64,000 nt of DNA, taken from the IMG/VR virus record IMGVR_UViG_3300046008_000291, positions 1 to 64,000 of that record; one strand, written 5' to 3'. The notes below the pieces were generated by a model, which ran no database searches, was not told where the DNA came from, and saw only the letters and a list, made by a program, of their open reading frames with translations. Position 1 is the first letter of the stretch. Every line of letters begins with the position of its first letter. Positions 28,375 through 30,674 of this stretch are shown in pieces. Source of the stretch: a virus. Made by a program: the position numbers and the translations under genes.

Positions 28375-28536
28375 TTACTTACGTGCTTCTAATATTCTAA
28401 TACGACTACGGATCTTTGCTTGATCCTTTTTCTTACTAGTCTTTTCTAACATGGTATTTAATTGTGTTAGGTTTAATGGACCTAAACGTGGTTTACCTGT
28501 GCGTGTCTGCATTGGATTTGCTTTTTTCACTGCCAT
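28375..28536 (-). CDS. Small basic protein (53 aa)
   Basis: Manual: MAVKKANPMQTRTGKPRLGPLNLTQLNTMLEKTSKKKDQAKIRSRIRILEARK; SD AGGAG. Confidence 0.65.
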   Translation of the reverse strand: MAVKKANPMQTRTGKPRLGPLNLTQLNTMLEKTSKKKDQAKIRSRIRILEARK

Positions 28537-28552
28537 GTTACTTCTCCTATAT

Positions 28553-28627
28553 TGGTTGCGGAGGACAGATTCGAACTGCCGATCTTCGGGTTATGAGCCC
28601 GACGGGTTGCCACTTCCCCACCCCGCG
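28553..28627 (-). tRNA. Initiator tRNA-fMet(CAT)
   Basis: C1:A72 mismatch, TCGGG-CTCATAA-CCCGA (three G:C pairs). Confidence 0.93.
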
Positions 28628-28802
28628 ATAAAAGTTCTGCGGCCAGTACAGGCCTGTTATCATGTGCAGAATCATGACTGATTTCAACGGTGGAGTTTCA
28701 CCACAGGCATCAGCTACCCTTGGACGGTTTGCCGTACTCTCCTAACCTCGAATACATATTGTTACGGCTTTCTTCCATTTACTTATTTGTTACTATCTAT
28801 AT

Positions 28803-28831
28803 AGTGTAGCATTTTTGATATTTGCTGTCAA
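28803..28831 (-). promoter_or_regulatory. sigma70 promoter upstream of structured leader and tRNA-fMet
   Basis: TTGACA-17-TACACT. Confidence 0.7.
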
Positions 28832-28845
28832 CCACTATTTGAAAC

Positions 28846-28919
28846 TGGCTCCGGTGGAGGGAATCGAACCCCCACTAACGGTTTTGGAGACCGCCGCACT
28901 GCCATTATACTACACCGGA
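28846..28919 (-). tRNA. tRNA-Trp(CCA)
   Basis: GCGGT-CTCCAAA-ACCGT. Confidence 0.94.
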
Positions 28920-28925
28920 ATAACT

Positions 28926-29000
28926 TGGCGACCGATGAGAGAATCGAACTCTCGTAGCAGGATGGACAATCCCGTGTAATAACCATTATACGAATCGGCC
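28926..29000 (-). tRNA. tRNA-Asp(GTC)
   Basis: CGGGA-TTGTCCA-TCCTG. Confidence 0.92.
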
Positions 29001-29011
29001 TTAAAATTTGT

Positions 29012-29086
29012 TGGGTTGACTAATGGGGGTCGAACCCATAATGCAGGAATCACAATCCTGAGTGTTGCCGCTACACTATAGTCAAC
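29012..29086 (-). tRNA. tRNA-His(GTG), second copy, G-1 encoded
   Basis: CAGGA-TTGTGAT-TCCTG. Confidence 0.92.
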
Positions 29087-29088
29087 AT

Positions 29089-29164
29089 TGGTAGGACGGG
29101 TGGGCTACGATCCCACCACCTCGACGTTAAAAGCATCTTGCTCTTCCAAATGAGCTACCGTCCC
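29089..29164 (-). tRNA. tRNA-Lys(TTT)
   Basis: Loop CTTTTAA; D arm GCTC/GAGC. Confidence 0.88.
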
Positions 29165-29169
29165 AAACT

Positions 29170-29253
29170 TGGTGGGTGATCTAGGAGTCGAACCTAGTTT
29201 CCAGTGGACACAGATTTACAGTCTGCTGCAGTCGCCAATGCTGCTCATCACCC
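29170..29253 (-). tRNA. tRNA-Tyr(GTA)
   Basis: GCAGA-CTGTAAA-TCTGT, long variable arm. Confidence 0.94.
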
Positions 29254-29259
29254 TTAAAT

Positions 29260-29337
29260 TGGTCTCTCGTGTAGGATTCGAACCTACGTTCTTCTTGCTC
29301 CCAAAGCAAGTGCCATACCAGACTAGGCGAACGAGAG
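29260..29337 (-). tRNA. tRNA-Pro(TGG)
   Basis: CTTGC-TTTGGGA-GCAAG. Confidence 0.93.
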
Positions 29338-29341
29338 TTAA

Positions 29342-29545
29342 CCGCACTCATATGAATGCGTATAATAAAGCACACTAATTACTCGCCTAAGACATAGTCC
29401 ACGTTGCATGGGACCTAGTTGCCGATTAATGTACTTTATTATAACTAGAATTTTCTGTTCACATAAGAACATGCCATCCTCTAGTCCGCCCATTTGCCTA
29501 GTTAACGTGCAGGCTGCGATCTCGTTTCGCGTAACACGTACTGCT
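29342..29545 (-). ncRNA. Candidate structured ncRNA of unknown family upstream of tRNA-Pro
   Basis: 19-bp stem TATAATAAAGTACATTAAT/ATTAGTGTGCTTTATTATA with G:U pairs, plus further hairpins; no ORF. Confidence 0.55.
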
Positions 29546-29546
29546 A

Positions 29547-29675
29547 CTACTTAGAAAGTTTTTTCAAAAGATTAGCATTTTCTGTTAATAGTTTTGTTAC
29601 TCTTTCTAATTTTTGTTCTAGTACCACTATCCTTTGTTCTGGAGTCGGCTTTTGAACAATTTCTTTTTTATCCAT
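29547..29675 (-). CDS. Small coiled-coil protein (42 aa)
   Basis: Manual: MDKKEIVQKPTPEQRIVVLEQKLERVTKLLTENANLLKKLSK. Confidence 0.55.
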   Translation of the reverse strand: MDKKEIVQKPTPEQRIVVLEQKLERVTKLLTENANLLKKLSK

Positions 29676-29688
29676 TTTTCGTCTTCTT

Positions 29689-29727
29689 AAAAACAAAAAA
29701 CCCTAGTAACATTTCTGCTCTAGGGTT
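29689..29727 (-). terminator. Intrinsic terminator of putative tRNA-operon attenuator
   Basis: AACCCTAG-13 nt-CTAGGGTT followed by TTTTGTTTTT. Confidence 0.85.
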
Positions 29728-29777
29728 CTTAATTAAAATTCACTTATATTATATATAAACGTTAACTAAGATCCCCA
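29721..29777 (-). promoter_or_regulatory. Putative antiterminator hairpin
   Basis: TGGGGATCTTAGTTAA pairs with TTAATTAAGAACCCTA (13 WC, 2 G:U, 1 mismatch), sequestering the terminator 5' arm. Confidence 0.7.
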
Positions 29778-29893
29778 TAGATACTATTCGGTGTGCGATC
29801 ATTGCCTAATGTCTCAATCGCTGACCAATAAGACATCGTGGCAAGTGCTGACACTTGTTTCGATATTGTAAATTGATGTAGCTGGTTAAACAT
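29762..29893 (-). CDS. Putative attenuator leader peptide (43 aa)
   Basis: MFNQLHQFTISKQVSALATMSYWSAIETLGNDRTPNSIYGDLS*, between promoter and terminator. Confidence 0.6.
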   Translation of the reverse strand: MFNQLHQFTISKQVSALATMSYWSAIETLGNDRTPNSIYGDLS

Positions 29894-29936
29894 TTTGCTT
29901 TCGCATTCCTTTAATTAATTTGTTACTATAACAACT

Positions 29937-29965
29937 AGTATACAGTCTATTTATCAGACTGTCAA
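29937..29965 (-). promoter_or_regulatory. sigma70 promoter with dyad and embedded late-promoter core
   Basis: TTGACA-gtctgataaatagactg-TATACT. Confidence 0.85.
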
Positions 29966-30018
29966 CCTCTTTGTTAATTTATTTATCTTTTATTTTTAAT
30001 ACGGTATAAAATACCAAG

Positions 30019-30216
30019 TTAATCGTCAATTACGTCAATTCCAGCAGTACCAAGTTCAGTTACTGCTTCTACTGCGGCTTTCTTCTTCGGTGCGCCCCAG
30101 AAGTTAGTTGTTGCTGTTTCACTTTGTACACCACGGGCAATTTGTTGTATCTGTCCGCCATTGGCTAAAAACTCTGCCATTGCTTGTTCGTAATCGTATT
30201 CATTCAAATCTGACAT
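30019..30216 (-). CDS. Hypothetical protein
   Basis: 65 aa, SD AAGGA. Confidence 0.65.
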   Translation of the reverse strand: MSDLNEYDYEQAMAEFLANGGQIQQIARGVQSETATTNFWGAPKKKAAVEAVTELGTAGIDVIDD

Positions 30217-30404: not shown

Positions 30405-30674
30405 TTATTGTCTTATTTGCTTGCCAACTTTAGTTAAATATTCTACACCACAGGTGCCTGCTTCAACATCTAGTAGTGCCTGCACAGTAGGAAGATTTTC
30501 ATATTTAGGTTGCGCTGTAGTTGATCCTGCATTGCGTGCAGCAATAACACGAGTCTTTGCAATTTCGTGCCCACGTACACCTGCGGCTAAAATTAATTGG
30601 AATCGGTTGCCACCAAATACGGCATCACAGTTATCAATGTTGTATTTTTCAACTGACGCTATCTTTTTTGACAT
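30405..30674 (-). CDS. rpoZ: RNA polymerase omega subunit homologue
   Basis: NRFQLILAAGVRGHEI and PTVQALLDVEAG match the RpoZ conserved segments (NRFDLVLVAARRARQ, KPTVIALREIEEG); 89 aa. Confidence 0.75.
   Translation of the reverse strand: MSKKIASVEKYNIDNCDAVFGGNRFQLILAAGVRGHEIAKTRVIAARNAGSTTAQPKYENLPTVQALLDVEAGTCGVEYLTKVGKQIRQ

Follow-up and report, generated by a model that had tools for sequence, protein, structure and literature searches.

We analysed a 64,000-nucleotide (nt) stretch of DNA from an uncultured giant phage (the window), the first 64 kilobases (kb) of the 177,658-base-pair (bp) IMG/VR record IMGVR_UViG_3300046008_000291, which was judged to be about half complete. On the minus strand of the window, between positions 29965 and 29689, a promoter is followed by a short leader open reading frame (ORF) and by an antiterminator and an intrinsic terminator that exclude each other; a small ORF, a structured RNA and tRNA genes lie downstream. 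This element is probably a ribosome-mediated (leader-ORF) transcription attenuator, which would decide whether transcription from a strong sigma-70-type promoter continues into a stable-RNA operon. Its elements exist in the window, are conserved and covary among related phages, and the geometry that connects the frame to the hairpins is kept; translation of the frame, the direction of control and the nature of the signal are inferred. The initial annotation, made from the window alone, had read the region as an attenuator of a phage tRNA operon. The structural part of that reading was borne out by a cassette that is conserved, with covariation, across a broad clade of uncultured phages, but the output is not limited to tRNAs because the small ORF and the structured RNA come first.

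Architecture and conservation of the switch

The promoter (29937-29965, minus strand, as are all the elements described in this section) has the form TTGACA-17-TATACT and matches 11 of 12 consensus positions, with an A/T-rich stretch before it (about 29966-29995). Both hexamers and their spacing are kept in every aligned relative. Transcription would start near 29930, giving a 5′ untranslated leader (29894-29930) that contains a Shine-Dalgarno (SD)-like AAGGA at 29911-29907. The leader ORF (29762-29893) consists of 43 codons and a TAA stop codon (29764-29762), and its product uses 19 of the 20 amino acids, Cys being the missing one. The last 16 nt of the leader, including the stop codon (TGGGGATCTTAGTTAA, 29762-29777), constitute the antiterminator 5′ arm. 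An A/T-rich, variable apical hairpin (29737-29761) persists in both conformers, and the antiterminator 3′ arm (TTAATTAAGAACCCTA, 29721-29736) ends in AACCCTA (29727-29721), a segment of 7 nt that is shared with the terminator 5′ arm. The intrinsic terminator (29689-29727) has a 12-bp stem interrupted by one bulge and capped with a GAAA tetraloop (29727-29699), followed by T6GT5, and a folding energy of −14.1 kcal/mol. A simple terminator scan missed it because of the loop limit of the scan. These results agree with the initial annotation in the promoter at 29965-29937, in the frame at 29893-29762 with its 19 amino acids and no single-codon run, and in the downstream order of small ORF, structured RNA and tRNAs for Pro, Tyr, Lys, His, Asp and Trp. 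The position and the U tail of the annotated terminator were also correct, but the 8-bp stem with a 13-nt loop proved to be the 12-bp bulged stem with a GAAA loop.

The pairing between TGGGGATCTTAGTTAA (29777-29762) and TTAATTAAGAACCCTA (29736-29721) comprises 13 Watson-Crick pairs, two G:U pairs and one A:A mismatch. It takes up AACCCTA, which represents seven of the eight nt of the terminator 5′ arm AACCCTAG, exactly as had been annotated. The most stable duplex that the leader forms with the 3′ arm had an energy of −16.5 kcal/mol, compared with −6.6 ± 1.8 kcal/mol for dinucleotide-shuffled sequences, and none of 2000 shuffles was as good. The fold of the whole leader had a z-score of −4.55, and the antiterminator was present in its most stable form. 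In the same whole-leader fold, the start of the transcript (UAGUAACA, 29922-29929) pairs with the loop and the 3′ arm of the terminator (UGUUACUA, 29704-29711). This pairing was rejected as a feature of the element; it is not kept in relatives that have other terminator loops.

Relatives were collected from uncultured phages by three independent routes, giving about 80 loci. The upstream 65-residue ORF as a query yielded 23 loci, a 19-mer of the leader yielded 36 and a search of metagenome contigs with an alignment of the peptide yielded 21. In addition, a profile search with the leader peptide in a protein database retrieved 40 clusters of 39-66 residues, all unnamed, and DNA was obtained for nine of the most distant members. 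Removal of duplicates left 41 distinct nucleotide variants in which both leader and switch are complete. Two of the 19-mer matches (L038 and L052) were treated as chance hits in unrelated, G+C-rich coding sequence without a terminator. No nucleotide match to the 1-kb region around the attenuator was found among GenBank phages in either near or distant search modes, and a covariance model of the switch detected a single copy, with no further ones, in the 177,658-bp record. Neither the leader nor the switch nor the structured RNA corresponds to an Rfam family, and tRNA alone reached the gathering score in the window; an Rfam scan of 28500-30050 gave chance-level matches only (E 0.18 or worse). 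The attenuator matched none of the covariance models of known riboswitches, T-boxes and other cis-regulatory RNAs.

Leader ORF, antiterminator and terminator were found together before tRNA arrays in the relatives, where the initial annotation had suggested looking for them, and both helices covary. RNAalifold on the plain alignment recovered the terminator only, since its pairing is incompatible with that of the antiterminator and the alignment of the upper hairpin is poor; we therefore counted the named structures pair by pair. In a structure-blind MAFFT alignment (A2, 301 cells), 92.0% of the antiterminator-helix cells were paired and four pairs (13 cells) had changed on both sides. The covariation score was reached by none of 500 shuffles, and controls slid by one column were 59-70% paired. 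A model-fitted alignment (A5, 30 sequences, 400 cells) gave the same picture, with 91.3% of the cells paired. For the terminator helix, 100% of 218 cells were paired in 28 distinct sequences and compensatory changes were present in three of the eight pairs; no shuffle out of 500 was as good, and slid controls were 25-75% paired. The terminator was present in all 37 family members in which 140 nt or more of sequence follow the stop codon. The complementarity on which the initial annotation relied is kept in the relatives with compensatory changes.

Six structural classes, distinguished by eye, keep the lower antiterminator helix with different letters, as exemplified by the arm pairs GGGGATCTTAG/TTAAGAACCC, GGGTCCTTAG/TTAAGGACCC, GGGTTTAAGT/ACTTAAACCC, GGGGTTCGAAG/CTTAGAACCCC and TTAGGGTTC/GAACCCTAA. 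The shared segment itself is mutated in L032 (AACCTTAG), L071 (AACCCCAGG), L090 (AGCCCTAG) and L091 (AACTCCAAG); at these loci the terminator 3′ arm compensates, and the antiterminator 5′ arm changes too or pairs by G:U. In every one of the 41 variants, 6-11 nt of the terminator 5′ arm pair with a segment near the 3′ end of the ORF, and the ORF ends inside the antiterminator 5′ arm. The competing arm lies 6-29 nt before the stop codon in 39 variants and extends further upstream in L083 and L091, and the distance from the stop codon to the U-tract is 55-67 nt across the variants. The C-terminal residues of the ORF differ wholesale between classes (NSIYGDLS, HNEGLS, GFMGVLS, SNCIRVREGWDGY and NSISGVRS) because the hairpin sequence dictates them, and the frame always crosses the arm.

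When both conformers were folded, a check that the initial annotation had proposed, they were mutually exclusive and nearly iso-energetic across the family. The median difference was 2.9 kcal/mol in favour of the terminator plus upper hairpin, with a range of −3.2 to +9.2 kcal/mol. Such nearly iso-energetic conformers suit a kinetic switch. Because the terminator form is energetically favoured, the antiterminator must act kinetically, by forming first.

The leader frame was open in all 41 distinct variants, and the other two frames contained 2.0 and 5.9 stop codons on average. Several independent insertions and deletions have occurred in the leader, every one a multiple of three. Codons 2-20 change at all three positions, with a ratio of nonsynonymous to synonymous change (pN/pS) of 0.80, and a stop codon was never gained. 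The leader is presumably translated. Its codon adaptation index, 0.555, was below that of all 106 long phage genes; 3.4% of random 42-codon windows were equally low. This low index is consistent with a slowly read test message, and constraints on the RNA could be an alternative source.

Proposed control of read-through and competing explanations

In the proposed mechanism, RNA polymerase would transcribe the leader, and the 3′ end of the ORF (29777-29762), once made, would pair with 29736-29721, so that AACCCTA would be locked up and the polymerase would continue. An undelayed ribosome would reach the last codons and the stop codon inside the 5′ arm of the hairpin and keep that arm single-stranded. 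The terminator 5′ arm AACCCTAG would then be free to pair with CTAGGGTT, and transcription would end at the U-tract 55-67 nt past the stop codon. Slow, stalled, late or absent translation of the leader would result in more read-through into an operon that would encode, in order, a small ORF in some phages, the structured RNA of about 200 nt and the tRNA genes. The structured RNA and the tRNAs are probably made mainly when ribosomes fall behind. Our best guess is that the signal is a general loss of decoding capacity, either through a shortage of charged tRNAs or through damage to the translation apparatus during infection, in which case the phage tRNA supply would be self-correcting.

The initial annotation had gone further in proposing that the leader senses a shortage of almost any charged tRNA, for example after cleavage by anticodon nucleases. 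As an inference by analogy this idea is plausible, and it is reasonable because the whiB7 upstream ORF (uORF) attenuator of mycobacteria, whose leader is also diverse and free of codon runs, responds to many depletions. In the portions of three reports that were available (PMC10264068, PMC11464382, PMC11555353), phage tRNA genes are now viewed as a counter to the loss of host tRNAs and to tRNA-cutting defences. It is from this known role, as these portions describe it, that the possible link to anticodon nucleases is drawn.

One part of the leader peptide is conserved to an extent that the switch alone does not require. The conserved block (29789-29833, minus strand) covers codons 21-35, S-Y-W-S-A-I-E-x4-D-R-T-P. 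Y22, W23, S24, A25, I26, E27, D32, R33 and P35 are invariant in 11 diverse members (alignment A3) and nearly so in the 40 database proteins, among which the exceptions are YWLSIE, YWLAIE or YWSAIS, loss of R-x-P in three (NSDRGF...) and DCLP in one. While the N-terminal half of the leader drifts, this block is the sole part of the peptide under strong residue-level constraint. The changes inside it are third-position and synonymous only, and synonymous change (pS) itself is reduced, at 0.37 compared with 0.56 in the N-terminal half. The block also contains a candidate hairpin, P1, between TGGTCAGCGAT (29827-29817) and ATCGCACACCG (29799-29789) on the minus strand. In P1, TGGT..GCGAT, from the Trp-Ser-Ala-Ile codons, would pair with ATCGC..ACCG, from the Asp-Arg-Thr-Pro codons; it shows no pairing with the antiterminator arm. 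Among 14 distinct forms there was one compensatory case and there were five one-sided breaks. The compensatory case was L085, where GCG to GCA together with CGC to TGT converts a G-C pair to A-U and the Arg is lost. The block may tune sensing, either by a nascent-chain pause just upstream of the hairpin or by P1 as an RNA pause hairpin. As a speculation, P1 might be a polymerase pause signal that synchronises the polymerase with the ribosome.

Several observations weigh against the attenuator, or against its acting as a general sensor. The near-invariant block with its lowered synonymous change is not required by the attenuator model, and a general tRNA sensor does not predict a nearly invariant YWSAIE...R-x-P, which counts against the sensing proposed in the initial annotation. 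Because the leader has no run of any codon, its sensitivity to mild starvation would be low. When the invariant residues were compared with the six downstream tRNAs, four of the nine residue types (Y, W, D and P) were shared, which was not significant in a hypergeometric test calculated by hand (p about 0.2). The window copy favours the terminator conformer over the antiterminator conformer by 7.1 kcal/mol, and its lower antiterminator helix, which has an A:A mismatch, is weaker than in any other family member; termination in this copy may be efficient regardless of the ribosome. Where the leader has 48-49 codons, the stop codon lies 22-29 nt past the competing arm, so that a ribosome at the stop codon leaves the arm uncovered and only a ribosome in transit covers it. 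The spacing for initiation is also poor. In the window, the sole SD-like element, AAGGA, lies 13 nt upstream of the ATG, a caveat of the initial annotation that was justified, and both AAGGA and a long spacing of 12-20 nt recur in most relatives, although L086 has AGGA 6 nt from its ATG. A further caveat concerned an overlapping six-codon frame, MRKQNV, which is present in the window (ATG at 29906-29904) but is not conserved; its ATG is AAG or ATA in L006, L003, L018 and L012.

The conserved block raises the possibility that a specific nascent-peptide arrest operates the same switch. In that case YWSAIE...R-x-P would halt the ribosome when the Pro codon is in or close to the P site, and the cue might be a small molecule or the condition of the ribosome itself. 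The leading edge of the stalled ribosome would fall just short of the antiterminator arm, the hairpin would form and read-through would follow. We regard such an arrest as unlikely. It would explain why the block is the only peptide part under strong residue-level constraint, and arrest peptides usually look like this, with a conserved block in such a position and a variable N-terminal part. Codon choice inside the block is flexible, with synonymous GCT and GAA in L075 and variation between TCT and TCC, CGC and CGT, and CCG and CCA. In 37 of the 40 variants with R-x-P, the antiterminator arm starts 7-19 nt (mostly 7-14 nt) after the first base of the Pro codon, which is the distance expected if a stalled ribosome leaves the arm free, and the spacing in the window, W-x3-E-x7-P, resembles W12-x3-D16-x7-P24 of TnaC (PMC10941005). 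However, Glu occupies the place of the TnaC Asp, where D16E abolishes function, and I19 is without a counterpart (PMC10941005). The W-to-P spacing is 11, 12 or 13 among members, and three database members lack T-P. Arrest peptides of the RAPP type need Pro-Pro, as far as the available portion of PMC10951233 describes them, whereas the next residue here is N, S, H, G, K or E. The leader peptide was without any Pfam family even at E = 10, and P1 can explain part of the block conservation at the RNA level, given that the change in L085 costs the Arg.

Two other explanations dispense with a ribosome-controlled switch. In one, the leader would be an ordinary small protein gene with its own terminator, and the stop-codon hairpin would be a processing or stabilising element, such as an RNase III site that splits the mRNA from the tRNA precursor. 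A functional micro-protein would be expected to have a conserved motif, as this peptide does; the hairpin of 20-25 bp is in the size range of RNase III substrates, the lowest-energy fold of the window copy contains the upper hairpin together with the terminator, and small ORFs are scattered through the tRNA region. Nevertheless, the competing pairs are kept by compensatory and three-way changes in six structural classes, where a bystander overlap should decay, and the near-neutral N-terminal half (pN/pS 0.80) is unusual for a folded protein of 43 residues. The hairpin sequence determines which residues the tail has, the cassette is always found at the head of a stable-RNA block, and the terminator would otherwise limit a consensus promoter to a 43-residue peptide. 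We consider this explanation quite unlikely. In the other, the switch would be set by a trans-acting factor or ligand (a protein such as the neighbouring RNA-polymerase-binding ones, an RNA, a tRNA or a small molecule), and the open frame would be incidental. Nucleotide conservation in the block that exceeds the needs of the peptide (pS 0.37 compared with 0.56), the location of the candidate helix P1 in the block, the poor SD spacing and the SutA-like and omega-like genes just upstream here and in some relatives would all fit this explanation. It is very unlikely in view of a frame that stays open in 41 of 41 variants, with in-frame insertions and deletions only, in A/T-rich sequence that has 2-6 stop codons in the other frames. 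There was also no Rfam match, P1 showed five one-sided breaks against its one compensatory case, and the SutA-like gene is not part of the cassette because it is not upstream in L083-L086.

A broader form of the ribosome-mediated attenuator can be imagined, to which we give little credence. The cassette would be a homeostat of decoding capacity with a new arrest module, in which YWSAIE...R-x-P, possibly together with P1, would pause the ribosome short of the antiterminator for a time set by the state of translation. The structured RNA and the tRNAs for Pro, Tyr, Lys, His, Asp and Trp would then be switched on when host defences or shut-off deplete tRNAs.

Comparison with known leader-ORF systems

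The enterobacterial amino-acid attenuators (trpL, hisL, leuL, thrL, pheL and ilv) likewise have a promoter-proximal short frame, for which translation is presumed here, a terminator 5′ arm able to pair upstream and a stop codon placed so that a timely ribosome masks the antiterminator 5′ strand. In the trp leader, the distance from the stop codon to the U-tract is roughly 70 nt, similar to the 55-67 nt in the phage family. The trp terminator is also thermodynamically stronger than the antiterminator, so that the choice is kinetic, as it would be here. The phage element differs from these attenuators in the absence of a regulatory codon run, in the presence of a conserved peptide block and in an output of viral stable RNAs rather than biosynthetic enzymes. 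It also has no demonstrated segment 1 that pairs with the antiterminator arm; the default without translation would therefore be read-through and not super-attenuation. Thus, of the trp/his geometry invoked in the initial annotation, the layout of antiterminator, terminator and stop codon holds, but the codon run is absent, and P1, the candidate upstream hairpin, does not pair with the antiterminator arm.

By analogy, the whiB7 uORF attenuator of mycobacteria is the closest tested analogue and the best functional model of a general sensor of translation stress. The whiB7 uORF of M. smegmatis encodes every amino acid but Cys; its efficient translation leads to a Rho-independent terminator and its stalled translation to an antiterminator (PMC10274678). 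It is triggered when any of numerous amino acids, tRNAs or synthetases is depleted, and in the case of Trp one codon is sufficient (PMC10274678). The phage leader is similar in being long and of mixed composition, in lacking only Cys and in the geometry of the switch, and by analogy it might respond in the same way. There is no sequence relation or shared descent between the two (no Rfam or Pfam match). The whiB7 output is a transcription factor in Actinobacteria, and its uORF is Ala-rich and variable with no invariant block, unlike the phage leader. Because the phage output includes tRNAs, its control loop would act directly on the very quantity that it senses, unlike that of whiB7.

Leader-ORF attenuators that sense antibiotics, as described in the available portions of reports on msrD (10.1101/2021.11.29.470318) and yxjB (PMC6851288), likewise depend on leader stalling that frees an antiterminator before an intrinsic terminator. 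Some of them, according to the same portions, rely on a specific nascent peptide, and the stall needs a drug in the exit tunnel. Nothing suggests a drug input for the phage cassette, unlike the msrD and yxjB type as these portions present it. TnaC shares with the phage peptides a Trp about 12 residues before a conserved Pro, an acidic residue four after the Trp and the control of read-through (PMC10941005). TnaC requires D16 and I19, loses function with D16E, stalls at its own stop codon and acts by blocking Rho (PMC10941005). Membership of the phage leader in the TnaC group was rejected: in addition to the Glu at the D16 place and the missing I19 counterpart, the Pro lies 6-14 codons before the stop codon, the W-P spacing ranges over 11-13, the Pro is missing in three members and the terminator is intrinsic. 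The RAPP-type arrest peptides (ApdA and ApdP, related to SecM) carry a C-terminal Arg-Ala-Pro-Pro or Arg-Gly-Pro-Pro in the available portions of PMC10951233 and PMC12992588. In the phage family, by comparison, the residue after R-[TAVN]-P is N, S, H, G, K or E and Pro-Pro never occurs, and membership in this group was rejected as well.

Full-text literature searches on attenuation or leader ORFs at tRNA operons or at the tRNA genes of phages returned nothing relevant. Leader-ORF attenuation is known for bacterial amino-acid and stress genes, and we found no published case for tRNA genes. The timing and dosing of phage tRNAs are hardly known. A leader-ORF attenuator before a tRNA block would make tRNA supply self-regulating, with the ribosome on a test message as the sensor and an output that restores what is lacking, and the range of a textbook bacterial circuit would widen to include stable-RNA genes and viruses. 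The part is compact (about 280 nt) and suited to reporter work without phage culture, and the invariant peptide block and the structured RNA pose two further puzzles, each experimentally approachable.

Downstream RNAs and neighbouring genes

After the terminator, the window has a small ORF (29547-29675, minus strand) of 42 amino acids (MDKKEIVQ...) with a good SD sequence. This ORF is optional. It occurs in some relatives only, including L084, L086 and L090, where it is also downstream of the terminator; in L009, L023, L020 and L017 the structured RNA follows the terminator directly. The products of these small ORFs are helical-looking, rich in Lys and Glu, and poorly conserved.

The structured RNA (29338-29545, minus strand) is about 200 nt long, has a z-score of −3.42 and lies between the attenuator and tRNA-Pro. 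It follows the attenuator in most of the relatives examined and was not confirmed in L083, L087, L089 and L091. Comparison with 13 relatives gave 34 consensus pairs, 11 of them with compensatory changes. A GNRA hairpin domain occupies its 5′ part; the other parts are the conserved single strand AACGGGCGGA, a stem-loop that covaries and has the loop UUAUGUG, an A/U-rich helix of 17 bp with a variable insert inside it, and a closing hairpin of 7 bp. In some relatives, T-arm-like sequences (GGTTCGACTCC and GGTTCGAGTCC) are present in the insert or in the spacer before tRNA-Pro, and ARAGORN calls no tRNA there. These sites are at L026:14035-14243 (minus strand), at L071:2712-2961 (plus strand) and 3′ of the structured RNA in L051, L072, L078 and L048; they may be tRNA-like modules or decayed tRNAs. 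The tRNA cluster of T4 also encodes two small stable RNAs, and structured RNAs thus stand beside phage tRNAs in both cases. To our knowledge, no leader ORF or terminator/antiterminator switch has been described for the T4 cluster, and the search of the GenBank phage collection showed no sequence similarity to it.

The tRNA genes for Pro(TGG), Tyr(GTA), Lys(TTT), His(GTG), Asp(GTC) and Trp(CCA) occupy 28846-29337 on the minus strand. In the relatives the first tRNA after the cassette is usually Pro, with Tyr, Glu or Asp in others. The 64-kb window contains 26 tRNA genes in total, all 26 on the minus strand. A second promoter-like site (TTGACA-17-TACACT, 28831-28803, minus strand) is followed by about 170 nt without an ORF and then by tRNA-Met(CAT); the segment 28628-28831 (minus strand) resembles another leader or a small RNA.

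Promoter, leader, switch, structured RNA and tRNAs stay together as a cassette even in distant members that have different upstream genes. Because these genes vary, the unit is defined as promoter, leader, switch and stable RNAs. The upstream genes encode TctC- and DctP-type solute-binding proteins in L084 (1-1860), a ClpP protease in L086 (1025-1597) and a weakly L7/L12-like ribosomal ORF in L090 (642-1049); the TctC and DctP genes may hint at a betaproteobacterial host. These phages occur in lakes. The tail sheath of the window phage shares only about 40% identity with its counterparts in PA5oct-like and Atu_ph07-like jumbo phages. Just upstream of the attenuator promoter in the window, a 65-residue ORF (30019-30216, minus strand) matched the SutA RNA-polymerase-binding domain PF20661 (E 9.3e-8; 31.8 bits, cutoff 29.3). 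SutA-like ORFs are also upstream in L090 and L091, as weak precomputed matches, and none is upstream in L083-L086. Further upstream, an 89-residue ORF (30405-30674, minus strand) gave a weak match, below cutoff, to RNA polymerase omega/Rpb6 PF01192 (E 0.0049). By sequence similarity, the SutA-like and omega-like ORFs point to a cluster of putative polymerase-binding proteins that heads the tRNA region. The 89-residue ORF sits behind a perfect TTGACA-17-TATAAT promoter (30734-30706), and in L091 an ORF with a recorded PF01192 match lies in the same neighbourhood.

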